Shown here: in pieces, positions 28,947 through 55,220 of the stretch | How positions within the stretch are numbered: the first letter of the stretch is position 1 | Layout: each line of letters begins with the position of its first letter | IMG/VR virus record: IMGVR_UViG_3300020045_004392 | Span: 1 to 59,230 of that record | DNA length: 59,230 bases | Source: a virus | Taxonomy: Duplodnaviria > Caudoviricetes | Direction: 5' to 3' (one strand) | Translations under genes and position numbers: made by a program | The notes under the pieces: model-generated | What the model saw: only the letters and a program-made list of their open reading frames with translations | The model's database searches: none | Told to the model about the DNA's origin: nothing

Positions 28947-29686
28947 TTACCATGAGAATAAACAACAGGACACAAAAATGATTTTATTGTTTTTGCGTGA
29001 ATGTCTGCTTTTCTGACATGTTCAAAATTCACAGTTTCTATTTTAATGTGTGGATTGCCGTTATGATATAATGATTTTACTTTCGTCCCCACCGGATACC
29101 TCCGTTTTGCTTCAGCCAGTAATTCTTCTTCCGTTGCGGTTGTCCAGTCGCGGTCTGCTTTAGGTAGCACGCGCCCCTTTTCATCACGTTTCAAATTCTT
29201 ACGCGAAAGTTTTGACTTTAACTCTGCTATTTCAGTTTCGGCAACTTTTAAGCAAGTCTGTGCGATTTTGAGTTCGTCCTTCAAATAGGTATTTTTACAC
29301 GCAATCCGATACCGTTCTTTCGACACTTCTTCCAATTCCGTTTCACGGTCTTTCAAGTCCGTTCGAAGGCTAGTGTTTCCAAATCGCAACTTATCATCAT
29401 GTTCCTGAATCGAAGCATATTTCAGCATCAGGCGCACGTGCATATCTCCCTGAGTATCGTTAAACTTTCGTTCTTCAGCTAATTCAGTAGCAAGTAGATC
29501 AAACTCTTCGTGTCGTTGCTTTTTCTCAATTTCTGAGAATTTGCGCCACTTTTTTAGCTTTTTGATTTCGTGCCGGATTTCATAATTGCGCAAGGCAAGC
29601 GAAACAGTACAGATGATAAACAATGCTGCAATAAATAATGAGCCGATAAATAACGAGTCTTGAAGTGATTGGGTGAATGAGTTCAT
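28928..29686 (-). CDS. Membrane-anchored coiled-coil protein
   Basis: N-terminal TM, long heptad region, C-terminal EELLAEAKRRYPVGTK. Confidence 0.6.
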   Translation of the reverse strand: MNSFTQSLQDSLFIGSLFIAALFIICTVSLALRNYEIRHEIKKLKKWRKFSEIEKKQRHEEFDLLATELAEERKFNDTQGDMHVRLMLKYASIQEHDDKLRFGNTSLRTDLKDRETELEEVSKERYRIACKNTYLKDELKIAQTCLKVAETEIAELKSKLSRKNLKRDEKGRVLPKADRDWTTATEEELLAEAKRRYPVGTKVKSLYHNGNPHIKIETVNFEHVRKADIHAKTIKSFLCPVVYSHGKWAEVC

Positions 29687-32662: not shown

Positions 32663-33439
32663 TTAATCAAATAGTGTTGGTTGTTTTAAATAATTTGTCA
32701 CTAATATTTCGGTTCGACGGGTTTTCAGATTTTGACGTTCACCGATAATATGGACATTTAGTTTTCGTTCTTTGGCTTGCTGTAAAATGAATGGATGATC
32801 AAATTCAGACATAGCGTATTTGCATCCGGTTGAATCAAGCGTATCAAAAAGGTCTGAACTATCCTGTTCTGTAAATGAATGGGAATAGTTATCAGAGGTA
32901 TTCAAATAAGGTGGATCACAATAAATAAATGATTGATCTGTTTCCCCTTTTCCGCCTCTATCATCAAGGCTAATTGAATTGAAAAATACCCTAAAATCTT
33001 TATTCATAAACTGAACTCCGAACATAAATTTCTGTGTCGGTTCAAGTAAATCAAGTATGGTTAAAAATTGATTCCCATTACATCTACTTGCTCCGTAAAC
33101 AATAGAATTTAAGTAAGTCAGATTTGATAAAAACAAAAATCGCATAGCTTTTCTTACTGGTTCTGTTTCTTTGTTTTCTTTCCAGTATTCAAGCAAATCA
33201 GAATGAATCGGCATCATTTTAAACTGCTGCTCTAGTTCATCTTTTTGATTGCTCACAACCTGGAATAAGTTAAAAACATCAGAATCCAAATCGTTCACAA
33301 TATTGTACTTTGCTTTTGGCTTGTTGAAAAACATTCCACCAGCACCGAAAAACGGTTCAATATAAATTTTGTGAGCAGGGAAATACGGTATGATTTTATC
33401 CGCAATCGCTGACTTGTTGCCTAATCTTCGTAGGATCAT
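32663..33439 (-). CDS. Dam-like (D12 class) adenine methyltransferase
   Basis: GNKS, YIEPFFGAGG, VNDLD and YCDPPY motifs. Confidence 0.9.
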   Translation of the reverse strand: MILRRLGNKSAIADKIIPYFPAHKIYIEPFFGAGGMFFNKPKAKYNIVNDLDSDVFNLFQVVSNQKDELEQQFKMMPIHSDLLEYWKENKETEPVRKAMRFLFLSNLTYLNSIVYGASRCNGNQFLTILDLLEPTQKFMFGVQFMNKDFRVFFNSISLDDRGGKGETDQSFIYCDPPYLNTSDNYSHSFTEQDSSDLFDTLDSTGCKYAMSEFDHPFILQQAKERKLNVHIIGERQNLKTRRTEILVTNYLKQPTLFD

Positions 33440-35635: not shown

Positions 35636-36013
35636 CTAGAAAGGAAGTGCATCATCAACTAACGGTGTATCATCAAACTGTTCTGACGTATTAACTTCGG
35701 CAGTCGGTGCAGACCATTCTTTCAGGTTACCCAAGAACGGCGTATATTTTCCGGCAGCCTTCAACGCTTCACGGATTTCCTTTTTAGGATTGATTTTGAT
35801 CGTGTGAGTATTCCCATTTTTTTGCTTCTCGGGTGCCACATCGTAAACGGCTATGCCCTGACTCAAATACGTTTTACCATCTTTAACCGTCTTTTCAATG
35901 TAGTTCGATTCAAGCGGTAGTATTACGCATTCGATTGGTCCGTTCTTACCTTTTACCATCGTAACGATGTGTTCCATCGCACTGTAATTCAATTGTCCTG
36001 TTAGTGTACTCAT
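35636..36013 (-). CDS. Putative single-stranded DNA-binding protein
   Basis: Acidic tail ending DDALPF; located in the recombination module. Confidence 0.65.
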   Translation of the reverse strand: MSTLTGQLNYSAMEHIVTMVKGKNGPIECVILPLESNYIEKTVKDGKTYLSQGIAVYDVAPEKQKNGNTHTIKINPKKEIREALKAAGKYTPFLGNLKEWSAPTAEVNTSEQFDDTPLVDDALPF

Positions 36014-36020
36014 TTTATGT

Positions 36021-36053
36021 TTTGCCCGTTATCCCGATAGCGAAGGGGTTATG
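36021..36053 (-). promoter_or_regulatory. Repeated 5' leader motif, copy 2
   Basis: Minus strand CATAACCCCTTCGCTATCGGGATAACGGGCAAA, 7 nt before ATG. Confidence 0.7.
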
Positions 36054-36228: not shown

Positions 36229-37107
36229 TTACTGTTCAACCTCCACACACATCTCATCCATGCTCCGCCCGGACATATACCCGTCCAAAATTCGTTTGGC
36301 CTTATGTACACGGTCGAGCATCGCATCAATGTAAATCTGATCACGCATGACGCGAATAATGACCAGTTGAAATTCAGGTTTACAGCGAGGATCGTAAGAA
36401 ACAAAATCGCACCATTGAACGCCTGCAACTTCGATATTCCCCTGAATTTGGCCGTAGTAATCGTGATTAATCATTATGCCGCCAGATTGTTTTAGATCGA
36501 AGTTGTTTTCATGAACCAATGGATCGTAAGGACATTTAATTTCGAGGATTCCTTCCACAAAACGGGTCGATCCTTCTTTACCTCCGATCACTTCCCCATC
36601 AAAGCTACCGCCCAAATACGGTATCGAGTAATGTACTTTAAACCCAACTTCATTAACCACATATCCGGTCTTTTCGGCATACTTTCCCCGCGCCTCTGGT
36701 TCGTACTTTGTTCCCCATGCGGTAGGTCTGAATTCTTTCATCATTTGCTCAATCGCTAATTGTTCGCGTCCTTCGTCTGTCATTCTCATATACGATGCGA
36801 TTGTTTTAATAACCTTCCTAGCAGTTTCGCCCCACTTTGCCATCTCTGGCGTGATTCCTAACTTCGCATTTACTTTCCCGTGTTTCATTAAGTCAGGAGT
36901 CTTTGAATTTGTGAACTTATCCCAGCGATGCAAAAACCATTCAATAGAACGTTGCTTCATTTGCTCAGTATCGTTTACTTTTTCGGAGTCGATCGTTATT
37001 GCTGAGAAGTCGGCAAGATCGGAGAATGGGTTGTTAACTTCATGTGATACCGATTTCATACCCTGAATATCACTACCTTTAAATTGTACTTTTACTTTGT
37101 CGCTCAT
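36229..37107 (-). CDS. YqaJ / lambda-exonuclease family protein
   Basis: QRSIEWF..R, WGTKYEPEAR, GGSFDG, LEIKCP and YYGQIQ motifs. Confidence 0.9.
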   Translation of the reverse strand: MSDKVKVQFKGSDIQGMKSVSHEVNNPFSDLADFSAITIDSEKVNDTEQMKQRSIEWFLHRWDKFTNSKTPDLMKHGKVNAKLGITPEMAKWGETARKVIKTIASYMRMTDEGREQLAIEQMMKEFRPTAWGTKYEPEARGKYAEKTGYVVNEVGFKVHYSIPYLGGSFDGEVIGGKEGSTRFVEGILEIKCPYDPLVHENNFDLKQSGGIMINHDYYGQIQGNIEVAGVQWCDFVSYDPRCKPEFQLVIIRVMRDQIYIDAMLDRVHKAKRILDGYMSGRSMDEMCVEVEQ

Positions 37108-37112: not shown

Positions 37113-37730
37113 TTAATTTATCGGGGTTTCAACAAACTGCCTTAACTCTTTCAACAACTGCATCGCCCGTTCATTTGCTTCAAATTTTGAACGCTGCAAT
37201 GTGAATACTGCAACCATATGCTTAATCGCAGGTGAAGTCTGATTGCACCACTCAGAAAGTTTTGCAATCGGGAAGCGCGTGCCGTCTGGAATATTAAACC
37301 CGCTCGAATCAGCCTTCAGTTGAATCTTTGGAAGTATTTCCAAATGCCGACCAATTCCCCATTTTGCAGCAGCGCGAACAAACGCACTTGAAGCGGCTGT
37401 CTTTGCTTCGAACGTGTCTTTATCGACTTGTTCAATTGATTTCTTGCGTGATGCCCTTGCACCTCCTGCATCTGATTTTTCAATCATGCCTCCATCGGTC
37501 ATAATCTGGATTGAGCAAAAAAGTATTCCGGCAACTTCGCGGTACTCATTACCCCAGCCACCAATTCCGCAAACCTCATCCAAAATAGTTTCGCACTGAT
37601 CCGCATCATAATACGGGTAAATTTCATTTTTACCGTCTCCGGCCGAGTCTCCGACCCTCCATTTAGGCAGTACACCAATTGACTCATGAAAGTCTGGTGA
37701 GCCAAGTTTGATTAATTCGATTTTTTCCAT
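37113..37730 (-). CDS. Rad52/Sak-like single-strand annealing protein
   Basis: PYYDA...ILDEVCG..GW and AKTAASSAFVRAAAKWGIGR motifs; adjacent to exonuclease. Confidence 0.85.
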   Translation of the reverse strand: MEKIELIKLGSPDFHESIGVLPKWRVGDSAGDGKNEIYPYYDADQCETILDEVCGIGGWGNEYREVAGILFCSIQIMTDGGMIEKSDAGGARASRKKSIEQVDKDTFEAKTAASSAFVRAAAKWGIGRHLEILPKIQLKADSSGFNIPDGTRFPIAKLSEWCNQTSPAIKHMVAVFTLQRSKFEANERAMQLLKELRQFVETPIN

Positions 37731-37737
37731 TTGTTTT

Positions 37738-37770
37738 TTTGCCCGTCATCCCGATAGCAAAGGGGTTATG
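37738..37770 (-). promoter_or_regulatory. Repeated 5' leader motif, copy 3
   Basis: Minus strand CATAACCCCTTTGCTATCGGGATGACGGGCAAA, 7 nt before ATG. Confidence 0.7.
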
Positions 37771-38093: not shown

Positions 38094-38417
38094 TTGATTA
38101 GGATTTGTAATTTGATTGACACAAATATAGCACAATTGTTTTAAATACGCAATAGGTAAAAGAAAATAAATTAATTATTTTTAGGGGTGAATACTCCAAT
38201 ATTCGAATCTTTTTAACATTTATTAACTGAAACGGTTTGATTTAAAATCGTTTCCTAAAAATTTGACCGATTTTTCAACCGATATTGTTTAATTCGTTTT
38301 TTAATAAATTGATTAACTTGTATTTTACTTTTTGATTAGAAAATTCGAGTACCTAAAAAGTACTATAAACTTTCCGCTATTTACAAGTTATCGTCCAGTT
38401 TAGGACGCTGCGTTGAT

Positions 38418-38723
38418 TCATTTTCGTTTCTTTTTAGGCTTTGTGTAATTTGACTTTGTGACCCTATCGAGTTTCTTGTCATGGACTTTAGTATAAGCCT
38501 CAAATTCTTGTGATTTCTTTCCTGCAATATATTTTTCGTTCATTTGACAATTCGGAAAGTCGCAAAGCATCCCATCTACGTGAGCGCATCCTTGTTCTTT
38601 AAACAAAGCGCAGTTTTTAACTGGATCGCCTTTACTTCCATCAAATAAACTTTTAAATATACTTCCCATTCCCGGCTGTTGTTGTATTGCGTACAATTCT
38701 CTTGCTTGTTGTTTTTCGTCCAT
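38418..38723 (-). CDS. Cassette 1 gene b, Cys-rich hypothetical protein
   Basis: MDEKQQ...CALFKEQGCAHVDGMLCDFPNC. Confidence 0.6.
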   Translation of the reverse strand: MDEKQQARELYAIQQQPGMGSIFKSLFDGSKGDPVKNCALFKEQGCAHVDGMLCDFPNCQMNEKYIAGKKSQEFEAYTKVHDKKLDRVTKSNYTKPKKKRK

Positions 38724-38727
38724 AATG

Positions 38728-39039
38728 TTAATTTTTAGATTTATAACCTTGTTCAATAAGTATGTGGTCAAGCTCATCATAAAAAGGTTGCATATTTTTA
38801 TTTCCAACCAATTCACGAACTTTAGAAAGCCAAAATTTTTGTTGTACTTCTCTGTTTTCAATTGTAAACTGGAGCTTTGTTTTGTTTGCTTTTTGGCTCT
38901 TAAACTCATCGGTACTTTTCAGCCAGACTTTTAAAATAGGTCTGATTAAAGTTTGTAGTTTGTCACGGTTGATGTATGGTTGTGCCAATACTGCATCCGT
39001 GATTCTTTTTGAAATTTCATCTAAACTAATATCGTACAT
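38728..39039 (-). CDS. Cassette 1 gene a, hypothetical protein
   Basis: ATG at 39039 (MYDISL); frame extends to a TTG at 39084 inside attC1. Confidence 0.6.
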   Translation of the reverse strand: MYDISLDEISKRITDAVLAQPYINRDKLQTLIRPILKVWLKSTDEFKSQKANKTKLQFTIENREVQQKFWLSKVRELVGNKNMQPFYDELDHILIEQGYKSKN

Positions 39040-39071
39040 ATAATTTTGATTAAGTGATTGAAAAACCGGAA

Positions 39072-39166
39072 CGATAACTTTCAATAACGGTCAAGTGCGG
39101 CAGTATCGGGTTTATGCGTTGGACATTGTTTCAAACCCGCCCCTGCCGTTATCTAACCCGTTAGCA
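39072..39166 (+). repeat. attC-like site 1
   Basis: CGATAAC...ATAACGG(T)CAAGTGCGG / CCGCCCCTGCCGTTAT...GTTAGCA. Confidence 0.8.
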
Positions 39167-39172
39167 ACAAGG

Positions 39173-39496
39173 TTAAAGGCGTTCCCAAATCCAAGTTTCT
39201 CGACCGTTGAATCTTGACGGAGTTTCATTAAATGGGGGTTGAAAATGAATACCCTTGCCTTTAAGGTAAAATCCTTGCTTAATGTCCATGAGTAACATTC
39301 CCTCATAAACAGTTGAATTTCCTTCCATTACAATTCCCTTTTCAATGCTAAAAACTCGACTTTTCGGCTCTGTAATTCTGACTCTATCTCCAATTGTACA
39401 GGGTTTTCCGTCTTTATCGTTGCAGATAAATAGCCCTATTGCTAACATGTTGCTACCCGCAATAGCGGCAGCATCGGTTTTTGTAGTTTCGTTCAT
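39173..39496 (-). CDS. Cassette 2 gene, hypothetical (YopX-like DKDGK..IGDRV motif)
   Basis: Start codon lies inside attC2. Confidence 0.6.
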   Translation of the reverse strand: MNETTKTDAAAIAGSNMLAIGLFICNDKDGKPCTIGDRVRITEPKSRVFSIEKGIVMEGNSTVYEGMLLMDIKQGFYLKGKGIHFQPPFNETPSRFNGRETWIWERL

Positions 39497-39571
39497 TGTT
39501 TTAAGTTATTAGTAATTTGACAGTTATATGTTTCAAATCCGCTACTGACGTGTAGCACAGTACCGTTATGT
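39440..39571 (+). repeat. attC-like site 2
   Basis: TGCTAAC...TGCTACCCGCAATAGCGG / CCGCTACTGACGTGTAGCA...GTTATGT. Confidence 0.85.
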
Positions 39572-39577
39572 GCAACC

Positions 39578-40312
39578 TTAAAAAAGCACGCATTGGCGTT
39601 TGTGGTTCTTGAATCGTTCTACTGCCGCCCGAAAATAGTCGGGGTCAAGTTCAATGCCGACAAATGTCAGGTTCTTTTTATCTAAGGTGTTTGCTTTGTC
39701 TATTGCTATTGCTATGCTTCCACTTCCTAAGTGGGTGTCAATAATCTTAAAGTTTTCATTTGCGTATTTATTTAAAATCCATTCGTAAAGTTGTACAGGC
39801 TTTTGCGTTGGGTGTATTTTATCGCCTGTTCTGTTATCATATCGGTAAAGTTGTGCAGGGCTATCAAAAGAAGTCCAAGCAAGTTCAACTTGGCTAAAGT
39901 TTTCCCAAGGTTGCACCTTATCCCAACATAAAATACAACGGCTTGGCGGTAAGTTAAAATAGTTGCCACCCCAAATAATTTGCTGTTTACTTATTCGTTT
40001 TAGTTCAGTAAAATATTCATCAGTTGGCACGGCATTGTCCCAATCGCAATTTGCTGTATTTAGTTTTCGGTATTTCAACTTTCCAGAACCACCGTTTAAC
40101 CTTTTATTATTATTTCTTCTTTGGCATGGTGTCGCTGCCATATTTGGGGCATTAATACCATAAGGCGGGTCAACAATAGCCAAATCAAACTCTTTGTCTT
40201 TAAAGGTTTTCATTATAGCCATATTGTCGGCATTGTAAAAAGAAAAAAAAGGCTGCACATAACACTCGCTATACGCAAGCGGGGGTGTAGTGCTATTTTG
40301 TAAGTCTGTCAT
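39578..40312 (-). CDS. Cassette 3 gene, N6A/N4C DNA methyltransferase (beta class)
   Basis: VDPPYG, HPTQKP and DTHLGSGS motifs; start inside attC3. Confidence 0.9.
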   Translation of the reverse strand: MTDLQNSTTPPLAYSECYVQPFFSFYNADNMAIMKTFKDKEFDLAIVDPPYGINAPNMAATPCQRRNNNKRLNGGSGKLKYRKLNTANCDWDNAVPTDEYFTELKRISKQQIIWGGNYFNLPPSRCILCWDKVQPWENFSQVELAWTSFDSPAQLYRYDNRTGDKIHPTQKPVQLYEWILNKYANENFKIIDTHLGSGSIAIAIDKANTLDKKNLTFVGIELDPDYFRAAVERFKNHKRQCVLF

Positions 40313-40385
40313 TCTATTTTAGTTTTGTGTATTTTGATACTTTTGCGCTTCTAATCCCCGCCAGCGCATAGCGGAAACGTTAACG
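40257..40385 (+). repeat. attC-like site 3
   Basis: ACATAAC...CGCTATACGCAAGCGGGG / CCCCGCCAGCGCATAGCG...GTTAACG. Confidence 0.85.
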
Positions 40386-41483
40386 CCAACCATATTCCGC
40401 TTCGTGGCCAGATATAGCGTTGAAAATTTGATAGACAACCTGGGGAACTATTGCGTTCCCGTAGGCTTTGATAGATTCATTTCTCCATTTAGGAAAGGTA
40501 ATTCCGTCCAGTTGGGAGGAAACCCCATCATTTCCCCCACAAATTGTGGGTTCAGTAATTGGGAATTTAGAGAATCGTCCATATTTCGTATAACTGTCTC
40601 CAAATTTTGTTGCTTCCCTTCCCTGTTCTTTCCCATGTAACCCGTTTTGCCGCTTGCTGCATCCGGTGTCGGTAAAAGTCCGGCATTGAACATCTGTTGT
40701 ATTGATCTGCAGTATTTCATTCCCTTCGCACTCACACTCTGGCCGTTCTCGTTCAATTTTCGGTTCGATGGGTTCGTATTTGGCGTTGGTAATAGTCCGT
40801 AAAACATCGCCGCATCTATTATGCTGTTCGGTCTGTTTTCCCCGTTCTTTCTGCTCATCATTGTTGTTGCTCCGGTTGCTTTCAACTTCTCCACCCGTTC
40901 GGGATGATCCCGTTGTACGCTTGTTGGCGTAGGCCACAAAGAAGATTCTCTCTCGTCTGTGTGGAGCATTAATGGCACAAGCTGGAAGTATAACCGGTGC
41001 GACTTCGTACCCTTCAGCTTCCAAGTCAGCTTGCACCTCGTTGAAAACCATTCCCCCGTTCCAATTAACGAGGCCATAAACGTTTTCCCCCACAATGTAG
41101 CGCGGGGCAATCTCCCGTATTGCTCTAAGCATTTCGGGAAATAAATGCCTTTCATCTTCTTTTCCGAGCCGTTTTCCGGCCATGCTGTATGGTTGGCATG
41201 GAAATCCACCCGTAAGGATGTCAATGTTTCCTCTGTGAATAGTGAAGTCTGTTTTTGTGATGTCGTCATAACTTATAGCTTTAGGCCAATAATAATTCAA
41301 TACTTTCTTTCCAAATTCGTTCCACTCGCAATGAAAGACGTTTTCCCATCCCATCCATTCAGCAGCTAGATCAAAGCCACCGATACCGGAAAATAATGAG
41401 CCGTGACGAAATGGCTGGGCGTTAACTTCGTCTACCCGCAAGTCTGGCAGCGGTGCGTTATTCAAGTTCATCTTTTCGTTCAT
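40380..41483 (-). CDS. Cassette 4 gene, C5-cytosine DNA methyltransferase
   Basis: LFSGIGG, GGFPCQ, ENV, HRRERIF and YGNAIVP motifs; start inside attC4; stop TAA formed by the GTTA crossover. Confidence 0.92.
   Translation of the reverse strand: MNEKMNLNNAPLPDLRVDEVNAQPFRHGSLFSGIGGFDLAAEWMGWENVFHCEWNEFGKKVLNYYWPKAISYDDITKTDFTIHRGNIDILTGGFPCQPYSMAGKRLGKEDERHLFPEMLRAIREIAPRYIVGENVYGLVNWNGGMVFNEVQADLEAEGYEVAPVILPACAINAPHRRERIFFVAYANKRTTGSSRTGGEVESNRSNNNDEQKERGKQTEQHNRCGDVLRTITNAKYEPIEPKIERERPECECEGNEILQINTTDVQCRTFTDTGCSKRQNGLHGKEQGREATKFGDSYTKYGRFSKFPITEPTICGGNDGVSSQLDGITFPKWRNESIKAYGNAIVPQVVYQIFNAISGHEAEYGWR
40448..41269 (-). CDS. Overlapping alternative-frame ORF inside the C5-MTase (xPTP repeats)
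   Basis: 273 aa open frame with LWPTP, LLPTP x2 and LNPQFVGEMMGFPPNWT. Confidence 0.5.
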   Translation of the reverse strand: MTTSQKQTSLFTEETLTSLRVDFHANHTAWPENGSEKKMKGIYFPKCLEQYGRLPRATLWGKTFMASLIGTGEWFSTRCKLTWKLKGTKSHRLYFQLVPLMLHTDERESSLWPTPTSVQRDHPERVEKLKATGATTMMSRKNGENRPNSIIDAAMFYGLLPTPNTNPSNRKLNENGQSVSAKGMKYCRSIQQMFNAGLLPTPDAASGKTGYMGKNREGKQQNLETVIRNMDDSLNSQLLNPQFVGEMMGFPPNWTELPFLNGEMNLSKPTGTQ

Positions 41484-41550
41484 ACATTATTGGTTTTTGA
41501 CAGTTATTTACTCGTAATCCAGCCCTGACGTGTAGCCTAGATCGTTATAT
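41420..41550 (+). repeat. attC-like site 4
   Basis: CGTTAAC...CTACCCGCAAGTCTGG / CCAGCCCTGACGTGTAG...GTTATAT. Confidence 0.8.
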
Positions 41551-42027
41551 GCCACTTAAAAGGGACTTCGCATAATCTGACAATTCTATCTGAATTTCGG
41601 TTAATTGACACATTCGATAGAAATCAAATATTGTAGAAGTAGCAATCGGCAGACATCCATAGAACCCATTATTTTGAAAGCAAATAAAATCCTCTTCCAT
41701 ATCAATTTTATGGGTTTTATCTTCATTTTTAATGAGTATTTCATAAACATAGCTTCCGTGTGAGCATCCATAGCCATCTCCACAATCACAGCTATCCCAT
41801 TGTAAAATAACGTTTGTAAACATTACTTTTGCGTTCTTTTCTTCTGCCTCTTTTTTGGCAAGTTCGTAATTATCATCATCCATAAATTTACGATCTTGCT
41901 CTGACGGAATCCAACCAGTTTTTTGAAGATTTGACCCTTCAATGTCAAGTGGAATCTGAATAAAAGCGGCATATAACTTCGTATTAGCGTCAATTGCCGT
42001 TGTGTTGGTTTGCGAATTTTTGTTCAT
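41545..42027 (-). CDS. Cassette 5 gene, hypothetical with CDC...GCSH motif
   Basis: Start inside attC5; stop formed by the GTTA crossover. Confidence 0.65.
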   Translation of the reverse strand: MNKNSQTNTTAIDANTKLYAAFIQIPLDIEGSNLQKTGWIPSEQDRKFMDDDNYELAKKEAEEKNAKVMFTNVILQWDSCDCGDGYGCSHGSYVYEILIKNEDKTHKIDMEEDFICFQNNGFYGCLPIATSTIFDFYRMCQLTEIQIELSDYAKSLLSGI

Positions 42028-42101
42028 TTAATTTATTTTTAAGTAATTTGACAAATTTGTTTTTCAAAATCGGCAACTGCGCCAATACGTCAGCGTTATG
42101 G
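41971..42101 (+). repeat. attC-like site 5
   Basis: ATATAAC...CGTATTAGCG(T)CAATTGCCG / CGGCAACTGCGCCAATACG...GTTATGG. Confidence 0.85.
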
Positions 42102-42134
42102 GTAAGGCTAAAGCTCTGTGATAAGTTTGTTGTC

Positions 42135-42446
42135 TTAAATAGGTTCAGAAAGAAATGCTGAACATCGGTATGAAATTTGGCAAACTCCTATTGGTGGATG
42201 AATACCGCAATTCATTTGATAGCAAATCTTTTTCTTTTCTGACTCTGATTTTATTCTTTCAATTTCACTTTTAACATCTGACCAGAAATCGAAATCCATT
42301 TGAAGCTCTTGTCTTTCAAGTAGCGGCTTGATGGTTAAGTGTCCGGTTGTAACTTTTAGGGCATCGACAATTTCAGAAACAACATATTTTGCATTGTCCC
42401 CAAATTGCGCTTTTAGTTCTTTTGCTTTTTGAGTGTAATTTGACAT
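42135..42446 (-). CDS. Cassette 6 gene, hypothetical (MSNYTQKAKEL...)
   Basis: ATG at 42446 preferred; frame stays open through attC6. Confidence 0.6.
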   Translation of the reverse strand: MSNYTQKAKELKAQFGDNAKYVVSEIVDALKVTTGHLTIKPLLERQELQMDFDFWSDVKSEIERIKSESEKKKICYQMNCGIHPPIGVCQISYRCSAFLSEPI

Positions 42447-42468
42447 TTGACAGATTTTGAAGCCCTCC

Positions 42469-42601
42469 CCATAACAGCCAAATACCCGGCAAGCTGGGCG
42501 GCTGAAAGTGTTCGAGCGTTTGAGTTTCGCATGTGCAGTATCGCAACTCGGATGGAATTTTGCACGTAATCCCATCCTGCGTGTAGCCGTCACTGTTAAC
42601 A
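42469..42601 (+). repeat. attC-like site 6
   Basis: CCATAAC...GTTAACA; homologous to 14-148. Confidence 0.8.
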
Positions 42602-42605
42602 ACAA

Positions 42606-42947
42606 TTATATTGTCAGCACATATTCGCTGACTAATCGTTGTTTGACATCTTGACTGAGATATTTACACGGAGCTTTACCTTTTATTTCTTCAAGACCAT
42701 GTACGCTACTATCATAAGTAGTATAATTACGCATTCCGTGACTAATATCTTCTTTGGTGAATGAAATCCATCTACCAAAATGATGTTCGACATGGCACGT
42801 TTTCCCATTTCTCTTTTTGTAGGTATCTTGTTTGTTTACAAATGCTTTCATGTTGTGAAAGTCAATCTGAAATATTTTATACTTACTATCAATTTTGACA
42901 GCTTGCATTTCTTCGAGATAGCTTTTTGTTTGCTGATTGTATTCCAT
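42606..42947 (-). CDS. Cassette 7 gene, hypothetical protein
   Basis: Fills cassette 42596-43049; absent from copy A. Confidence 0.65.
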   Translation of the reverse strand: MEYNQQTKSYLEEMQAVKIDSKYKIFQIDFHNMKAFVNKQDTYKKRNGKTCHVEHHFGRWISFTKEDISHGMRNYTTYDSSVHGLEEIKGKAPCKYLSQDVKQRLVSEYVLTI

Positions 42948-42959
42948 TATAATAACTGT

Positions 42960-43055
42960 TGTTAACTTTGTGTTGCGGTAAATTGGGGTTGTGTTGCTTC
43001 GTTGACAGGCAATTATTTCAAACTCCCCAACTTCCGCAACACATCAGCGTTATTT
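42960..43055 (+). repeat. attC-like site 7
   Basis: TGTTAAC..TGTGTTGCGG(T)AAATTGGGG / CCCCAACTTCCGCAACACA...GTTATTT. Confidence 0.85.
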
Positions 43056-43059
43056 TTAG

Positions 43060-43557
43060 TTAAAATATGTCCAATGGATAACTTTTTACTATCGCTTTGA
43101 TCCTTGTTATCTCTTCCATTCCACAACCCTCAAATCCCTGGCACATAAATTTAATTCGTGATACAGGGATGTTCAACATTGTCGAAATTTCAGCCGAAGA
43201 TAATCCACTGCAAAATAGTGTGCGTATTTCCCATGAGTCAATTACTCGCTTCGGCTTTGCTGGTTCCCGTTCAGGTTTTGACACGACAAAGATGTTTTTT
43301 AACGAGCAATCTTCATAACTGCCATAATATCGGATTCGACCACAAAACGCATCGTAATCCAGACCATTAAACAGACAGTAAACCAATCTAGCCAAATAAA
43401 TAGTTTGCCCACCTAAAGTCATAATTACATGGTTATTTTTACCGATACGTGTCCCGGTTACTTCGGTGCCGTTTGGCCTGAATACTATGCCTGAGTCGGT
43501 GATGGTATATCCGTTAAATTGGCGCGTCTGAGCCGTTAGAGTGTCGTTTTTTTTCAT
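43060..43557 (-). CDS. Degenerate HNH/HTH protein (homolog of 175-672)
   Basis: High similarity to 175-672. Confidence 0.55.
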   Translation of the reverse strand: MKKNDTLTAQTRQFNGYTITDSGIVFRPNGTEVTGTRIGKNNHVIMTLGGQTIYLARLVYCLFNGLDYDAFCGRIRYYGSYEDCSLKNIFVVSKPEREPAKPKRVIDSWEIRTLFCSGLSSAEISTMLNIPVSRIKFMCQGFEGCGMEEITRIKAIVKSYPLDIF

Positions 43558-43709
43558 AACAATTCACATTCAATAGCGTTAAACAATTCATAAGGTATTT
43601 TTTCAGTAGATTCAATGTAAACACGTCCTTCGGTAACTGTTACCGAAGTTATGCCGTATTGGGTTATTTCGTCTGAAAATTTGGTGAGTAATGTGGAAAT
43701 GTGGTTCAT
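43554..43709 (-). CDS. Small hypothetical protein (homolog of 1019-1174)
   Basis: MNHISTLLTKFSDEITQYG...; read manually. Confidence 0.75.
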   Translation of the reverse strand: MNHISTLLTKFSDEITQYGITSVTVTEGRVYIESTEKIPYELFNAIECELL

Positions 43710-43921
43710 AGTCGTACGATTCCGATGCCGTTGCGTAAATACCAGTTTGGTTGTCTTTGATCACGAACAAACTTAAATAATTTAATCTTTTCCTCATCAA
43801 TATCTTCAGGGTTTCCCTGCAATGATATTTCGTATCCATCAAAATGAATACAATAAAACATCTCAGGCTTTAATCTGGTAAACCTGAAAATTAACTGCAA
43901 ACGTCTTAAATTTTCTTTCAT
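43706..43921 (-). CDS. Hypothetical protein (homolog of 1171-1383)
   Basis: Shared MKENLRRLQLIFRFTRLKPEMFY. Confidence 0.75.
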   Translation of the reverse strand: MKENLRRLQLIFRFTRLKPEMFYCIHFDGYEISLQGNPEDIDEEKIKLFKFVRDQRQPNWYLRNGIGIVRL

Positions 43922-44091
43922 GATCGATTTGTTTTTACCCCGGCAACATCGCCGTTGATCGTTCAGCAAATATACAATTGTTTTTTATATTTCAAAACTA
44001 TTTTTATATATATTTGATATATTTTTAAATATAACGAAAAACAGCAATTTATTTTTATTTTATATTTGAGTCAAAAAAGCGATATATTGAC

Positions 44092-44407
44092 AAAAGATAG
44101 AAAACAGCAAAATAAACCTATCTTTTTCACCCAAAAGATAGCTACCTAACCAAGCTTAAAACCTTACTACAATTGGCTTAGTGAATTATTCTATCTTTTT
44201 ATACATATTAGACTAAAGTATAAATATAATATAAAATAAAAATGAATTTAAAAATAAATTATATTTAAAACATACAGCAGAGTAGTAAATTTAGATAGAC
44301 TTTTACACTAACATACTAAAACGCCTTTATTCATAAGGATTAGATACCTATCTAAAGCCTATCTTTTACCTATCTTTTTAGGATAGGTTTTAATTTCCTA
44401 TCTTTTT
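44092..44407. repeat. CTATCTTTT/AAAAGATAG iteron-like repeats around a conserved AT-rich core
   Basis: Copies at 44092, 44118, 44133, 44191, 44359, 44370 and 44398. Confidence 0.65.
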
Positions 44408-44544
44408 AGTTTTGTGTAGAATTTTTTGATATATTTGCTGATGTTAATGGTCAAGATTAACAACCAAAGATATTAGGTGTCAAAACCTGAATCCCTATCA
44501 AACATCTTGACCGTGTTTTTTAGGGATTTTTTAATTTACATATT

Positions 44545-45015
44545 ATGAGTTACAAAGGTGTTACAAAATCAGGAGATCAATTTAAGGCTCAAATTTATCA
44601 TTTAGGAAAGGTTATAAATGTTGGCGTATTCTCATCTGATTTATTGGCAGCAAAAGCCTATGATGAGAAATCGAGGCAATTAAACGGTAATGACACAAAG
44701 AAGATAAACTTTGCACTTGAGGTTAAAAGAGAATCAAACCTAAAAGTTCATTCAGAAAAAACAGGTACTTACAAAGGTGTTTCATTCGATGAAAAAGAAA
44801 ATCTTTGGAAAGCTGAAGTTTCTGTATTGGGTAGTATTGAAATTATTGGGTTTTATGATACTGAAGAAAAGGCCGCAATGTATCATGATGAAGCTATTTA
44901 TGGACTTATATGTCCAAATGTTTTGCGTATAATGGAACCAGATGAACGTGCAAAACTTTGCAATTTTACACACGATGAATATTGCTCACTTGCTTTTAAG
45001 GAAATATTAAAGTAA
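44545..45015 (+). CDS. Tandem AP2-domain DNA-binding protein
   Basis: Two YKGV...(F/W)KA.I/V...G.F/Y....AA..Y/HD repeats. Confidence 0.85.
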   Translation: MSYKGVTKSGDQFKAQIYHLGKVINVGVFSSDLLAAKAYDEKSRQLNGNDTKKINFALEVKRESNLKVHSEKTGTYKGVSFDEKENLWKAEVSVLGSIEIIGFYDTEEKAAMYHDEAIYGLICPNVLRIMEPDERAKLCNFTHDEYCSLAFKEILK

Positions 45016-45038
45016 TTTTGAGTTTTAAAACTTTTGTT

Positions 45039-45482
45039 ATGGCAGCCCCTGAAGGTAATGAATATTGGAAATTAAGGTCTAAAGATGGTCGGGATAAGAT
45101 ATTTGAAACACCTGAGCAACTTTTAGAAGCTTGTAATGATTATTTTGAATGGGTACAAAACAATCCTTTAAAATCGTCTGAAATAGTCAAATATAAGGAT
45201 TATGCAGAATTAATGGAAGTTCCTAAAATGAGGCCAATGACTATTGAGGGGCTTTGTAATTTCATTGACATAAGCGTGAAAGGATTTAAGCTGTACAGAG
45301 ATAGAATAGATTTTATTCCAGTCGTTACGCGCATTGAGCAAATAATTTACAATAATAAGTTCGAGGGTGCTGCTTCCGGCTTCTTAAATCCTAACATTAT
45401 TGCCCGTGATTTGGGTCTTCAGGATAAACAGCAAACCGAACATACAGGCGAAATAATCGTTCGCCCGCCAAAGTTCGACTAA
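45039..45482 (+). CDS. terS: Terminase small subunit (P22 gp3-like)
   Basis: MAAPEGNEYWKLRSKDGRDKIF...RPMTIEGLC...NIIARDLGL. Confidence 0.85.
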   Translation: MAAPEGNEYWKLRSKDGRDKIFETPEQLLEACNDYFEWVQNNPLKSSEIVKYKDYAELMEVPKMRPMTIEGLCNFIDISVKGFKLYRDRIDFIPVVTRIEQIIYNNKFEGAASGFLNPNIIARDLGLQDKQQTEHTGEIIVRPPKFD

Positions 45483-46718
45483 ATGATAATCGACCTAAAT
45501 AAACATCGAGACGAAATATTTAATCCTCTTATCGGTACTTTGCAAAAAGCTGATAAGCGTTTTGTCATTAATTACGGAGGTGCTGGTTCTGGAAAATCAT
45601 TTACACAAACGCAGCATGAAATAATCAGGTGTTTACAAAAACAGGAGAAATTACTTGTAATTCGTAAAGTAGGAACTACGCTTAAAGATTCGGTAGTCGC
45701 TTTGTTTGTCTCAATTCTTAATTCGTGGGGTTTAGAGGATTTTTACACTGAGAATAAATCAACTCAATTCATTCAATTTTCAAACGGTAGCTGCATTCTT
45801 TTCAAGTCGATGGATGATCCTGAAAAGATCAAATCTATTGCCGGTATTACGCGTATTTGGATTGAGGAAGCAAGCGAATTAACCCAGGCTGATTTTAGTC
45901 AGTTAAACTTACGACTTCGGGGACGTGATAACTTACAAATTACATTAACATTTAACCCGATTGATGAAGAACATTGGATTAAGTCTTATTTCTTTGACAA
46001 TGAAACTGTAAATGCGAAAACAAATATAATCAGAACTACTTACAAAGATAATAGATTCATTGATGAGGCATATAAGGCAGAGTTAGAAGGTTATCAGCAT
46101 ATTGATAAAAACTACTATAAAATATATGCGCTTGGTGAGTGGGGTGGAATTACTGAAGGTCGCATATTTCCGATATGGGAACAGATTGAGCGTTTTCCTG
46201 AAATTGATGGTCACTGGTACGGGCTTGATTTCGGGTTCTCAAATGATCCGACGGCGATAGTTAAAACCATTAAATGGAAAAATAGAATCTATTTTGATGA
46301 GCGGTTGTATCGCGTTGGACTGACTAATCCTGATATTGCATCGTTTATGTTTGCCGATGGGTACAAAGGACAGGTAGTAATTTGTGATTCTGCGGAGCCT
46401 AAAAGTATTGAAGAGTTGCGGCGGCTTGGTATTAATGCAATTGAAGCGCAAAAGGGGGCAGGTTCAATAATGGCCGGTATTGACTTTTTGAAGGCGCATA
46501 AAGTACTGGTAACTCAGTCAAGTTTAAACCTGATTCGTGAGAATAAATATTATCAATGGAAGGAATTGCCGCCAAACAGACAGACTGCAAATAAACGTTT
46601 TGATAATACGCCTAAAGACTGGATGAACCATCTTAAAGACGCCTGCCGTTATGCGTATTCGCTTGGTGACTTCGCTCAGGCAGGTGGAAGTGTTGATGTT
46701 AGGTGGGATGAATTATAA
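45483..46718 (+). CDS. terL: Terminase large subunit, PBSX family
   Basis: Same motifs as 2730-3965. Confidence 0.95.
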   Translation: MIIDLNKHRDEIFNPLIGTLQKADKRFVINYGGAGSGKSFTQTQHEIIRCLQKQEKLLVIRKVGTTLKDSVVALFVSILNSWGLEDFYTENKSTQFIQFSNGSCILFKSMDDPEKIKSIAGITRIWIEEASELTQADFSQLNLRLRGRDNLQITLTFNPIDEEHWIKSYFFDNETVNAKTNIIRTTYKDNRFIDEAYKAELEGYQHIDKNYYKIYALGEWGGITEGRIFPIWEQIERFPEIDGHWYGLDFGFSNDPTAIVKTIKWKNRIYFDERLYRVGLTNPDIASFMFADGYKGQVVICDSAEPKSIEELRRLGINAIEAQKGAGSIMAGIDFLKAHKVLVTQSSLNLIRENKYYQWKELPPNRQTANKRFDNTPKDWMNHLKDACRYAYSLGDFAQAGGSVDVRWDEL

Positions 46719-46806
46719 CCTGTCACGGATTTAGGCTAAATGTGTGACAAAAAAAAGCCCCAAAATAGTTGCCAGTAATACAGATAGCGCAGTTGTGATG
46801 GTTAGT

Positions 46807-47064
46807 TTACTTTGTATATGTCAATCTAAAATCAACGTCTTTGCCTTCGTTTTTATAGTCAATAAAGCTACTTTCTGATAATTCAAAACCAGAGTTTAAA
46901 ATAACTGCAATGTATTTATAATATTTAGTTGCACTAAAATAACCCTTAACTGTAATCTCATTAAACTTAGATATTTCGTTAGCAAAATCATAAAAACTAA
47001 CATTATAAACTTCTGAACCTGTAATTACAGTGATAATTTTTGATATTGAAAAAGTTGCGTTCAT
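46807..47064 (-). CDS. Antisense moron gene, hypothetical
   Basis: ATG at 47064 with TATCTTTG promoter at 47098-47105 (-); absent in copy A. Confidence 0.6.
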   Translation of the reverse strand: MNATFSISKIITVITGSEVYNVSFYDFANEISKFNEITVKGYFSATKYYKYIAVILNSGFELSESSFIDYKNEGKDVDFRLTYTK

Positions 47065-47205
47065 GTCGTTTGTTTTTATTTGTTTATTTCTATGCTTCAA
47101 AGATAGCACTATTGTGCTAACTACACAACTTTAAAGTGTTAAAAAATGTTAAAATTTGAAATTAGTTTTTAGTTTTGTATATTTGACAAAAATAACTTTC
47201 AGAAC

Positions 47206-48489
47206 ATGGCACTATTTAACATCTTCAGCCGAAATAAAGACAAAAACCCATTAACACGCGCAGTATTTGAGTACTGGATACATTCAGGGAATGTCAACAA
47301 CATTCCAGATGATCCGGACGCTTATCTGAAGAAAGGATATTCAGCGAATACAACTGTTTATTCGATTGTTTCAAGGATTGATGCAATGCGTAAACAGGCT
47401 AAACTAGTGCTAAAGGATAAGGTCGGTAATATAGTCGAAACACATGAATTGTTAAAGTTTCGTGATCGTTTTAATAAATCACTTACCACTAATGATGCCA
47501 TTACTCAAATGCTGATTTATAAATTGGTGATTGGTGAATGGTTCGTGTATAAACTGGCACCAGATGCCGGAGCGAATAAAGGCAAGGTTTCAGAATTGCA
47601 TTTACTTCCTGCTGCTGATGTTGAAATAATTGAAGGCAGTATATTTGATCCGGTGCGAGGGTATAAGATCGAAGGAAATTACAACATTGAATTGCCGGTT
47701 GAATCAGTCTATCACGGCAAACTATTTAACCCGAATTGGAATGATGAGCGGACGCTCCACGGAATGTCACCACTTCGCGCGGCTGCAAATACCGTATCAA
47801 AGTTAAATCAGATTGAAATAACCGAAACAAAAGCATTCGAGAACCAGGGACCGCCTTACATTTTGTATAAGGAATCCTCAACCGATCCGATGCAAAACCG
47901 GATGACAGACCCGCAGCGCGATGAAATTGTTAAGAAGATCAAAAACGCTGCAAAGGAAAATAATAGATCATTGCCGTTAGTGTTAAAAGACAAATTTGGA
48001 AAACTGGATTTAGGGCAAAAGCTTGCCGATATGACTATCATTGAGTCAAGTAATGCAGGTATTCAGGCACTGTGCAACGTTTATCAAATTCCCGGGCAAA
48101 TATTCGGAATTGGCGAGGCGACCTATAACAACATGAGGGAAGCGCGCAAAGCCGCATGGACTGACTGCATACAGCCGAATTTGACATCAATTGCTGAGTG
48201 TATGAACGCTTGTACGATCTTCGACATTCAAGAATATCAAGGACTGTACTGGGATTGGGATTACTCAGACATTGAGGAACTTCAGGAGGGTATGGAAATT
48301 AAAGTAGGTTGGATGAAAGCCGCTGGATGGTCGTACAATGAGATTCGCAAAGTGACAGGCAAAGAACCTATTGATAACCCACTGATGGATGAGCCTGTAA
48401 TTGGCATGGGTGATACTTTTTTGAGTGATTATGGCGATCCGTTGGACGATCCTAACGCTGCTAAAGATTTTGGGGACTATAAAAAATAA
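47206..48489 (+). CDS. Portal protein
   Basis: Homolog of 4026-5309; TATATTTG promoter at 47178-47185. Confidence 0.9.
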   Translation: MALFNIFSRNKDKNPLTRAVFEYWIHSGNVNNIPDDPDAYLKKGYSANTTVYSIVSRIDAMRKQAKLVLKDKVGNIVETHELLKFRDRFNKSLTTNDAITQMLIYKLVIGEWFVYKLAPDAGANKGKVSELHLLPAADVEIIEGSIFDPVRGYKIEGNYNIELPVESVYHGKLFNPNWNDERTLHGMSPLRAAANTVSKLNQIEITETKAFENQGPPYILYKESSTDPMQNRMTDPQRDEIVKKIKNAAKENNRSLPLVLKDKFGKLDLGQKLADMTIIESSNAGIQALCNVYQIPGQIFGIGEATYNNMREARKAAWTDCIQPNLTSIAECMNACTIFDIQEYQGLYWDWDYSDIEELQEGMEIKVGWMKAAGWSYNEIRKVTGKEPIDNPLMDEPVIGMGDTFLSDYGDPLDDPNAAKDFGDYKK

Positions 48490-48495
48490 AATATT

Positions 48496-48912
48496 ATGGC
48501 AACACGTACAAATTATTTCATTCAAAAAAGTTTAGATCATATTTATCTGAACAGCGCAATTACCAACATTGGCGATGCAAGTGGATTGCCTGCTGCCGCA
48601 ACTGCCGGAAATCTTTATATGGCATTGTTAGTTAGCGGAACAGAAACAGCATATACCAGTTATGCACGTCAGCCAATTCCCAGATCAGGATCAGGTTTTG
48701 TCCGTGATGCTAATGTTGTTTCAAACGTGGCTCAGGTAAATTTCCCGAAGTCAACAGGTGCAGGGGAGACAACCTGTAATCAGGTTGCAATTTACGATGC
48801 TGTATCTGGTGGAAACCAAATGCATTTACAAACCCTTGCTTATGACATTACTACAACAATAAATCATATACCAATTATTGAAGCTGGAGCATTAACCATC
48901 ACCGGAAGCTAA
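48496..48912 (+). CDS. Putative virion structural protein
   Basis: YARQPI...SN...VNFPKST...AIYDAVSGGN motif seen in phage fibre/adaptor proteins. Confidence 0.55.
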   Translation: MATRTNYFIQKSLDHIYLNSAITNIGDASGLPAAATAGNLYMALLVSGTETAYTSYARQPIPRSGSGFVRDANVVSNVAQVNFPKSTGAGETTCNQVAIYDAVSGGNQMHLQTLAYDITTTINHIPIIEAGALTITGS

Positions 48913-48913
48913 C

Positions 48914-49252
48914 ATGGCAACTACTATTTTCAACGACTACTACAAGAACGTTTCATCTGGAGCAATTAATCCTTCTGATGTAAACTTTTCAGCGTATATA
49001 GTTGATGGGGCCTATGTGCCTGAACCTACACATAAAAGAGTGAATGTAACAGGCAAAATAGTTACACTCAGGCAGGTCATTATTAATGAAGATATTTCGA
49101 CCCTTTCAATGAGTGAAATTATTGAGAAGGTTAAAAGCAAGTTGGAAGATGCTGAGTACGAAAATGCTGCTGCTTTTGTTGTGTACGATATTGCTACAAC
49201 CGAATTATGTTGGCACGAAACGTTTGATAAACCCCGAATAGATGGCGAATAG
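48914..49252 (+). CDS. Hypothetical protein (inserted block)
   Basis: Coupled ORF. Confidence 0.6.
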   Translation: MATTIFNDYYKNVSSGAINPSDVNFSAYIVDGAYVPEPTHKRVNVTGKIVTLRQVIINEDISTLSMSEIIEKVKSKLEDAEYENAAAFVVYDIATTELCWHETFDKPRIDGE

Positions 49253-51554: not shown

Positions 51555-51822
51555 TTACTATAAGGGATCATCTTTGAATTTGGAATTAAATACCGGAGTT
51601 GATTTATCTGGTGCATCTTCCGTACTTATAAAAACAGATGTTAACGGTACGGTAGCGTCAACGGATGCTACTTTAATGGACGACGATCAGACTGTTACCC
51701 TTAAAATAATATTGGCAGCATCAGGGCGTTACCGTGTATGGGTTAATGCTATTTATTCAGGTACAGAAAAATATATAGGATGCCCATATGATTTCAATGT
51801 TTTGGAAGAGGGAAAACTATGA
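51544..51822 (+). CDS. Small Ig/BppU-like structural protein
   Basis: TGVDLSGA...GRYRVW beta-sandwich pattern. Confidence 0.45.
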   Translation: MSCNYYKGSSLNLELNTGVDLSGASSVLIKTDVNGTVASTDATLMDDDQTVTLKIILAASGRYRVWVNAIYSGTEKYIGCPYDFNVLEEGKL

Positions 51823-52604: not shown

Positions 52605-52647
52605 ATATGAAATAAATATTTACATTTAACGAAAATTTACATGGAAT

Positions 52648-53364: not shown

Positions 53365-53365
53365 A

Positions 53366-54763: not shown

Positions 54764-54809
54764 CCAAAATAGGCTGGTGAAATATCCGGCCTTAACACAC
54801 TCATAAAAT

Positions 54810-55220
54810 ATGAAAAAGTTTATTTTTATCGCGATTTTTGGACTGATTACAATGTTCAGTCAGGCGCAAACTGTTGGCGGGATTACTTCGCTCGTTGGCG
54901 CAACTGTTACCGACACTGAAACTGATTATCTAACTATTGCCACTCCAGTAGCAATTCAGGGTAATTATACAATCGGATTACAAATGGCTGGATCGGCGAC
55001 CGGAACAAGTACTGTAACAGGTGCAATTCAAGTATCAGATGATAACTCTACATGGTATAATTATGGTTCTGCTATCACTTTGAATAATGCAGGGACAGTT
55101 GCCAATTATGCGTGGGCGTTGGAATCAAGTCAGTTTAGGTACTACCGAATAAAATTACTATCATCCGGAAGCGGAACGACCGTATGTACAGGGAAGATTC
55201 TGATTAAGAAAAAGCAATAA
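54810..55220 (+). CDS. Signal-peptide protein (homolog of 8080-8490)
   Basis: MKKFIFIAIFGLITMFSQA|Q leader. Confidence 0.6.
   Translation: MKKFIFIAIFGLITMFSQAQTVGGITSLVGATVTDTETDYLTIATPVAIQGNYTIGLQMAGSATGTSTVTGAIQVSDDNSTWYNYGSAITLNNAGTVANYAWALESSQFRYYRIKLLSSGSGTTVCTGKILIKKKQ

Follow-up and report, generated by a model that had tools for sequence, protein, structure and literature searches.

An integron-type cassette array without an integrase in a lytic-type phage, and sites of the same family in Flavobacteriaceae chromosomes

Introduction

The DNA analyzed here (IMG/VR record IMGVR_UViG_3300020045_004392, positions 1 to 59,230; the whole stretch of 59,230 nucleotides is called the window) carries, among the early genes of a tailed phage, a row of short genes separated by imperfect palindromes, and it raises the question of how such genes are bounded and exchanged by a virus. 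The phage is lytic-type and its hosts are presumably Flavobacteriaceae-like. The original prediction, made from the letters alone, had taken the row for an array of attC cassettes that has no integrase of its own and relies on a host IntI. In the reading that we regard as likely, the region is an integron-type (attC-type) cassette array without an integrase, i.e., a cluster of attC sites lacking integron-integrases (CALIN), which occupies a hypervariable early/accessory slot and would be served in trans by an enzyme of the host.

Integrons have been regarded as bacterial devices that are near-absent from Bacteroidota, and phage CALINs as rare curiosities. In the parts of these papers covered here, integrons are described as very rare in Bacteroidetes (IntegronFinder 2; PMC9024848), and a review counts Bacteroidota among the phyla with integrons (PMC8618304). 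Phage CALINs are not new as a kind. In the covered parts of Qi et al. 2023 (PMC9892861), 17 CALINs are reported in phages, among them one with two methyltransferase cassettes in the virulent Polaribacter phage P12002L, and a P12002L site is reported to have recombined with attI1 under IntI1.

Results and Discussion

Anatomy and folding of the sites

Seven palindromes with paired inner arms were found at the predicted places, and an eighth lies close to the start of the window (site sA; Table 1, where site coordinates are model coordinates running from TAAC to GTTA on the plus strand). Read on the minus strand, a site starts with TAAC, followed in most sites by an unpaired spacer of 6-7 nucleotides (nt) as against 2-5 nt (about 3) on the other arm. 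The stem comprises 17-18 pairs, is imperfect, and carries single unpaired bases, two more on the 3' ('') arm than on the 5' arm; the interior is variable and 30-70 nt long. This is the imperfect-palindrome anatomy of attC-type sites, which the original prediction had recognized and to which covariation now adds. As in a CALIN, the sites are clustered and no integrase gene lies nearby.

The TAAC/GTTA boxes were invariant in all 11 sites of an alignment of the eight window sites with three from a related phage, L006. RNAalifold, run on a plain MAFFT alignment of eight sites, yielded no structure, and the stem model used in its place was a hand-set basal structure checked by pair counts. Among the 11 sites, 85.3% of the stem cells were paired, as compared with 72.4% after shuffling; none of 500 shuffles reached the observed value, and slid controls gave 27-44%. 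Changes on both sides were seen in 12 of 17 stem pairs, and in 15 of 17 when 24 sites from four phages were considered. Pairing in the latter set was 92.9% versus 66.0% after shuffling, in an alignment that was fitted to the model and leans toward structure for that reason. As background, a scanner for TAAC..GTTA duplexes picked up only two further minus-sense positions in the window (59 kb) at a cut-off of -13 kcal, and about six positions in 263 kb of unrelated bacterial flanking DNA at a cut-off of -12.

The mismatches of the stems had been noted to be mostly G-T on the minus strand, and a fixed wobble of this kind was found. The stem pair 25-120 is G.U in 9 of the 11 aligned sites (19/24 in the model-fitted alignment), and in all eight window sites the minus strand gives the more stable basal duplex. 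The minus-strand preference is a structural asymmetry only; the folded minus (bottom) strand is the predicted substrate.

Pairing of each cassette with its own site

The head of each cassette had been noted to complement the left end of the site of that same cassette. We scored this as matches over 16 positions outward from TAAC/GTTA, comparing the left box of a site with the reverse complement of the cassette head. For cassettes 1 to 7 the own-cassette scores were 12, 13, 14, 11, 13, 13, and 14, each the row maximum among eight candidate heads, while the other cells gave 5-11. All seven cassettes thus begin with the remainder of their own site, as expected for a crossover in the R' box. Across four phages, the 16 consecutive pairs averaged 11.75/16 versus 7.3 (SD 1.8) for 441 other pairs, 5.4% of which reached 11 matches. 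The same pairing was seen in a chromosomal array of a Flavobacteriaceae genome (G495, described below), in which 38 consecutive pairs averaged 10.4/16, other pairs 7.35, and the two boxes belonging to one site 7.4.

Position 11 is where the mismatches of the own pairs cluster, in phage as well as bacterial arrays. On the folding strand this position is a G.T wobble in 9 of 13 well-matched phage pairs (17 examined) and in 23 of 24 well-matched pairs of G495 (38 examined). Since this pairing exists only when the ends of a cassette meet, its conserved wobble speaks for a single-stranded intermediate, circular or at least looped, in phage and bacteria alike. A C-A-G element opposite T-T-G occurs both in the R stem, formed by the own pairing, and in the L stem, in the window as well as in G495. 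The two elements flank the central spacer at similar distances and give a pseudo-symmetric pair of G.T wobbles, which is possibly the signal for strand choice.

Variation among related phages and position of the junctions

Only six related viral records were found. The array occupies a variable slot between a conserved gene of 165 amino acids (aa) and the promoter region of a 116-aa gene. In L003 and L004 there is no array and the 165-aa gene is followed straight by the 116-aa gene; L005 has different genes and no sites in the slot, and L006 has three sites with three other cassettes. The window itself contains part of the genome twice, as positions 1-16,700 repeat 42,457-59,230 in diverged form (72-92% nucleotide identity); copy A, at the window start, lacks cassette 7, and copy B runs from 42,457 onward. 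Gene content thus varies between relatives, in line with the original prediction. G404, which is more distantly related, carries eight sites split between two genome regions, one of which surrounds the annealing-protein gene, and related phages thus carry their arrays in differing slots. The G404 record (loci L053, L054) is labelled linear, and its 100-nt exact terminal overlap points to a circular, probably complete assembly; two of its cluster-initial sites begin with TAGC instead of TAAC.

Breakpoints had been predicted at G|TT, and this part of the prediction stood in three comparisons, in which the junction lies directly after TAAC, and did not in two others, which break about 6-13 nt inside a site. 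In the first of the three, a 15-nt box is common to cassette 2 of the window and the last cassette of L006, whose proteins have no similarity, and the shared tail is followed by s1 in the window and by backbone in L006. In the second, the arrays of the window and L006 both end on homologous backbone sequence and their last cassettes differ. In the third, from the Polaribacter phages P12002S and P12002L, an identical stretch of 68 nt follows each of three different cassette tails. It is found in P12002L (L047) at 29172-29239 and 37198-37265, after the last cassette of each of two methyltransferase clusters, and also in P12002S, and could be a phage-side insertion site.

Cassette genes and their orientation

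The cassettes encode an N6/N4 methyltransferase, a C5 cytosine methyltransferase, and six small proteins without a Pfam family. All genes are on the minus strand, which puts a site at the 5' end of every gene. Four of the seven cassettes (2, 4, 5, and probably 3) have their start codon and 15-25 codons within the site, and the methyltransferase domain matches of cassettes 3 and 4 begin at about residue 24-26. As the Pfam and PHROG matches of cassette 3 begin at residue 24-25 or later, its N-terminus is encoded by the site. In cassette 4, no start codon is present between the R'' box and catalytic motif I, which places the start inside s4. For the cassette-3 N6 enzyme, bacterial homologs were compared at 24 loci: in 23 of them the match starts only at residue 19-28, and none of the 24 has a site upstream of the homolog. 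A locus in a Bacteroidales metagenome-assembled genome (L031) has strong TAAC..GTTA scanner hairpins downstream of a methyltransferase homolog (7456-7602 and 8368-8451); the covariance model of the phage sites does not match them, so they are probably a different element.

Other roles of the repeats were considered. The motif TTGAAA..YTGTCAA occurs three times, always in the array, and 6 of 12 matches to YTGTCAAA are in the array. The idea of a phage-specific promoter was dropped since the same interior motifs are found in bacterial sites whose genes read in the opposite direction. A single-strand promoter, as in plasmid leading regions, was ruled out by the folding strand being the sense and not the template strand, and RNase III-type processing with an mRNA-end panhandle by the start codon of at least cassette 4 lying upstream of the 3' arm.

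Chromosomal arrays of this site family in Flavobacteriaceae

A covariance model (R1) was built solely from the 11 phage sites; its E-values are rough, and the scores of the window sites are circular as these were used in training. Outside the training set, R1 found four sites in P12002S, a weak one in Tenacibaculum phage JQ, and eight in G404, while P12002L gave weak short matches beside its methyltransferases, at best 20.9 bits with filters off. With the phage sites as a probe, full-length matches of up to 63.7 bits were obtained in 56 of 151 Flavobacteriaceae genomes, the genome samples being partial, in arrays of up to at least 68 kb with a non-canonical recombinase adjoining.

In G495 (contig C1, loci L069-L071, 531368-602940) there is a single one-strand array of sites of about 125 nt that extends over at least 68 kb. 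At the genome-search threshold it has 15 sites between 534.7 and 602.9 kb, and mapping of a 56-kb stretch (530-586 kb) gave 39 sites. Its order is the canonical one, with the open reading frames (ORFs) on the other strand and a site after each stop codon, and four further arrays are alike, making five in total. The G495 boxes fit the consensus GTTRRRY better, e.g., GTTGGGC and GTTAGGT. Sites are near-identical within one bacterial array, in contrast to the heterogeneous phage sites. No Pfam family above cut-off was found for eight G495 array-side proteins scanned, the recombinase apart. Given the R1 matches of the bacterial sites, the interior motifs that they have in common with the phage sites, and the position-11 wobble present in both, the phage sites belong to the same family as those of the Flavobacteriaceae chromosomal arrays.

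The recombinase beside the chromosomal arrays

In profile searches of the window (PF00589, PF00239, and PF01797), no tyrosine recombinase, serine recombinase, or Y1 transposase was found, which agrees with the lack of a visible tyrosine recombinase noted earlier, and the five other site-bearing phage records likewise gave no phage tyrosine recombinase. The G495 array, on the other hand, starts 2.2 kb 3' of a gene for an Xer/IntI-like tyrosine recombinase of 394 aa. This protein scored 220.6 bits with NF040815 (cut-off 220) and about 190 bits each with XerC and XerD. With the integron-integrase profile TIGR02249 it reached 213.4 bits in two stretches (cut-off 265). In an alignment with the canonical IntI of another genome, G283, both IntI-specific insertions were missing and the N-terminal stretch of about 100 residues differed. 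Canonical IntI at the TIGR02249 cut-off was found in none of 401 sampled Flavobacteriaceae genomes and in one of 401 genomes of the class, the five best candidates being scored per genome; the sole genome passing was G283 (421.9 bits), in which two scanner-positive sites adjoin the gene. A complete integron has an adjacent IntI with the extra domain, and neither the phage nor the array-linked host enzyme provides one.

Homologs of the G495 recombinase (E ≤ 1e-60) are present in 80 of 151 family genomes. In ten genomes, which were picked for having a site and a homolog on one contig, a choice that favours nearby sites, 33 matches (32 sites and one opposite-strand echo) lay in 149 kb 3' of the recombinase with constant polarity, and none lay in the 141 kb searched 5' of it in eight of these genomes. 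The recombinase is co-directional with the bacterial cassettes, which lie 3' of it.

The claim of a host IntI acting in trans is thus only partly supported. No canonical IntI was found in the sampled genomes of this family, and the likely partner is a non-canonical host recombinase, arrays of the same site family lying 3' of the Xer/IntI-like enzyme. A host enzyme in trans is a reasonable proposal, for which the candidate is this Xer/IntI-like recombinase and not IntI as usually defined.

Proposed mechanism

Built on the observed anatomy, covariation, own-cassette complementarity, family membership of the sites, link between array and recombinase in hosts, and variation among relatives, the proposed mechanism is as follows. 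A cassette consists of one gene (two in cassette 1) and a site of about 90-127 nt. When the minus strand of the site folds, the TAAC and GTTA boxes pair, an unpaired spacer of unequal arms comes next, and the imperfect stem of 18 bp holds the fixed G.T wobble. Cassettes would be formed and moved as circles, the circles being presumed, through single-strand, structure-specific recombination near the TAAC box, and such a history would leave each gene flanked by the two halves of one site. As the phage has no such enzyme, we infer that a host Xer/IntI-like tyrosine recombinase acts in trans and that exchange in the phage continues. In the inverted phage cassettes the gene is on the folding strand with the site at its 5' end, so that the genes read the same way as phage early transcription. 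The two methyltransferase cassettes plausibly protect the phage from host restriction. Cassettes are probably shuffled as well by homologous recombination between the conserved interiors of the sites, which the annealing protein and exonuclease of the phage could drive.

Were phage and chromosomal arrays both acted on by the enzyme, a common pool of cassettes would serve marine Flavobacteria and their lytic phages, and phage accessory regions with counter-defence genes such as methyltransferases would gain a defined and testable mechanism of exchange. The system would also offer a natural test of how a tyrosine recombinase without the IntI extra domain selects a folded single strand. A bolder proposal is put forward tentatively, as one with a real but minority chance of being right. 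Flavobacteriaceae would have a widespread integron-like system with an Xer-like recombinase lacking the IntI extra domain, perhaps missed by standard criteria. The strand would be chosen through the fixed, symmetric G.T wobbles of the R and L stems and not through extrahelical bases, and lytic phages would tap the system with inverted cassettes, including anti-restriction methyltransferases, by borrowing the host enzyme during infection. If this were true, phage counter-defence and host accessory genes would circulate via one recombination system.

Evidence against the proposed reading and alternative explanations

Several observations weigh against an integron-type array served by a host enzyme. 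The full GTTRRRY consensus is present in none of the eight R' boxes of the window, in which GTTA alone is constant. The canonical order, with the ORF on the top strand and attC after its 3' end, is not seen in the phages, as all 24 phage sites are on the sense strand at gene 5' ends; in every bacterial array examined the cassettes have the opposite orientation. No homolog of a phage cassette protein was found in the approximately 170 kb of bacterial arrays compared. The correlation between sites and recombinase is weak, with a homolog in 35 of 56 site-positive and 45 of 95 site-negative genomes, and the choice of the ten genomes mentioned above has to be taken into account as well. Finally, copy A and copy B break about 9-13 nt 3' of TAAC, where a stem base of s6 is left mismatched, and in P12002S an insertion of 1080 bp has its junction in a shared pentamer 6-11 nt after AAC. 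Judged from the sequences, homologous exchange looks like a better fit to these two breaks, and s6 looks like a recombinant of two site types. Breaks inside sites point to homologous recombination between conserved site sequences in addition.

Such recombination could be taken as the whole explanation. The stem-loops would then be portable regulatory modules, shuffled mainly by relaxed homologous recombination or single-strand annealing with the Rad52-like protein and YqaJ exonuclease of the phage, and no site-specific recombinase would be involved, a situation much like that of the promoter stem-loop cassettes in T4-type phages. The genes for both proteins lie just downstream of the array, the annealing-protein gene of G404 lies within a site cluster, the motifs common to the site interiors are long enough for microhomology, and the breaks between copies A and B and between P12002S and P12002L fall inside such motifs. 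However, homologous exchange inside sites neither creates nor maintains the 11-15-nt complementarity of the cassette ends, and it leaves the conserved G.T wobble at position 11 unexplained. Several junctions lie exactly after TAAC beside non-homologous sequence, and the same site family adjoins a tyrosine recombinase in bacteria. We therefore consider this explanation unlikely.

It is quite improbable that the array is a relic. In that view, an integron-like system of a host once donated or assembled it, its inheritance is now passive, and the hairpins have been retained for a different purpose, e.g., mRNA 5' structure, processing, or termination. The inverted orientation does put the strongly folding version of the site into the mRNA around each start codon; the folding strand being the mRNA strand, hairpins stabilized by G.U pairs are expected in the transcripts too. 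The heterogeneity of the phage sites, as compared with the near-identical sites of one bacterial array, and the lack of a phage recombinase would also suit a relic. Against this, the cassette content varies among close relatives and between the two copies within the record, and related phages carry arrays in different slots. A role in RNA alone leaves the pairing of gene ends 300-1100 nt apart unexplained, and no Rfam family matches the array region.

Small transposon-like elements with terminal inverted repeats and a transposase in trans, suggested by the 8-15-nt inverted repeats starting with GTTA that bracket each gene body, were rejected as highly implausible, since the repeats differ beyond GTTA between cassettes and so provide no common binding site, start codons and promoter-proximal parts would fall outside the element, no transposase was found, and the intervening sequence is a conserved, covarying hairpin.

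Relation to known systems

Returning to the integron-type reading, the closest precedent is the P12002L CALIN, which like the array of the window is an integrase-less attC-type cluster with methyltransferase cassettes in a lytic phage of a Flavobacteriaceae host (PMC9892861, in the parts covered). The window differs from P12002L, with its two sites, in having seven, in the explicit own-cassette complementarity, and in the inversion of all genes, and the covered parts of that paper do not hold the link to host arrays with a non-canonical recombinase. The literature covered, which leaves aside subscription journals and supplements, gave no account of large arrays in Flavobacteriaceae that adjoin a recombinase lacking the IntI domain.

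The chromosomal arrays recall sedentary chromosomal integrons, e.g., those of Vibrio, which are arrays of near-identical attC repeats. Like these, the Flavobacteriaceae arrays have tens of cassettes, near-identical sites of about 125 nt, mostly genes without a family, pairing of the R box with the own cassette, and a neighbouring tyrosine recombinase. Unlike in sedentary integrons, the recombinase is below the profile cut-off (213 vs 265 bits), lacks the IntI insertions, and is co-directional with the cassettes. The phage array differs from sedentary integrons in having no recombinase and inverted genes.

Among phages, T4-type phages have promoter-early stem-loop (PeSL) cassettes, for which homologous recombination between the repeats is the assumed mode of movement. 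As in that case, the window has small accessory early genes in a hyperplastic region, bounded by repeated stem-loops and shuffled between relatives. Unlike PeSL cassettes, those of the window carry halves of their own site, and the sites belong to a family linked to a recombinase in bacteria. In filamentous phages such as CTX phage, a folded single-stranded site is used by the host XerCD and the whole phage genome is integrated at dif. The proposed situation in the window is similar in that a phage without a recombinase would offer a folded single strand to an Xer-type tyrosine recombinase of the host, and differs in that cassettes would be exchanged within a double-stranded DNA phage instead of a whole genome being integrated. 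The parallel between CTX phage and XerCD is cited in the covered parts of PMC8138268.

Genome layout and other features

The features of the array and its surroundings are listed in Table 1. The small and large terminase subunits and the structural genes are on the plus strand of the window, and the minus strand carries replication, recombination, and small accessory genes at 26.7-43.6 kb. The closest cultured kin are phages of Flavobacterium, Polaribacter, Nonlabens, Tenacibaculum, and Cellulophaga.

Table 1. Array, sites, and neighbouring genes of the window. Site scores are bits with model R1, in which training members score circularly.
Feature	Positions	Strand	Remarks
Site sA	17-145	-	Copy-A counterpart of s6; 95 bits, training member; homolog of 165-aa gene directly after
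YqaJ-type exonuclease	36229-37107	-	Profile match; downstream of array
Rad52-like annealing protein	37113-37730	-	Borderline, 20.2 bits vs cut-off 20.3
Downstream end of array (transcription direction), attI-like junction	38330-38390	-	Last cassette tail ...GATAAC joined to backbone
Cassette 1	38418-39039	-	Both ORFs (38418-38726, 38728-39039) small and without a Pfam family; phrog_31522 (function unknown) matched by the first
Site s1	39075-39163	-	89 nt, short form; wholly upstream of start codon at 39039; 66.8 bits, training member
Cassette 2 gene	39173-39496	-	107 aa, no family; start codon within s2
Site s2	39443-39568	-	126 nt; 118.1 bits, training member
Cassette 3 gene	39578-40312	-	N6/N4 DNA methyltransferase (Pfam, PHROG)
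Site s3	40260-40382	-	123 nt
Cassette 4 gene	40380-41483	-	C5 cytosine DNA methyltransferase
Site s4	41423-41547	-	125 nt
Cassette 5 gene	41545-42027	-	160 aa, no family
Site s5	41974-42098	-	125 nt; 18-bp stem, two G.T pairs, one extrahelical A on 3' arm
Cassette 6 gene	42135-42449	-	About 104 aa, no family
Site s6	42472-42598	-	127 nt; mismatched stem base
Cassette 7 gene	42606-42947	-	113 aa, no family; missing from copy A
Site s7	42963-43052	-	90 nt, short form; R' box abuts stop codon of 165-aa backbone gene
165-aa backbone gene	43060-43557	-	Upstream of array; no family; kept in relatives with and without arrays

The record has 59,230 bases and is labelled linear, with a CheckV completeness estimate of 82%. 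From the duplication described above it follows that it represents about 1.4 units of a genome of about 42.5 kb, and it looks like two strain variants fused in assembly or a concatemer of mixed origin. The label may therefore be misleading.

Outside the array, a D12-class N6-adenine DNA methyltransferase is encoded in the backbone at 32663-33439 and brings the number of methyltransferases in the phage to three, together with the two cassette enzymes. A 43-nt repeat (36011-36053 and 37728-37770, 88% identical) lies just upstream of two backbone start codons, holds a small GTTATC..GATAGC palindrome, and has cross-matches in L005 and L006. Among the structural genes, ARAGORN predicted a tmRNA-like gene at 14294-14610 (asterisk-flagged), which overlaps a tRNA-Tyr at 14567-14649.

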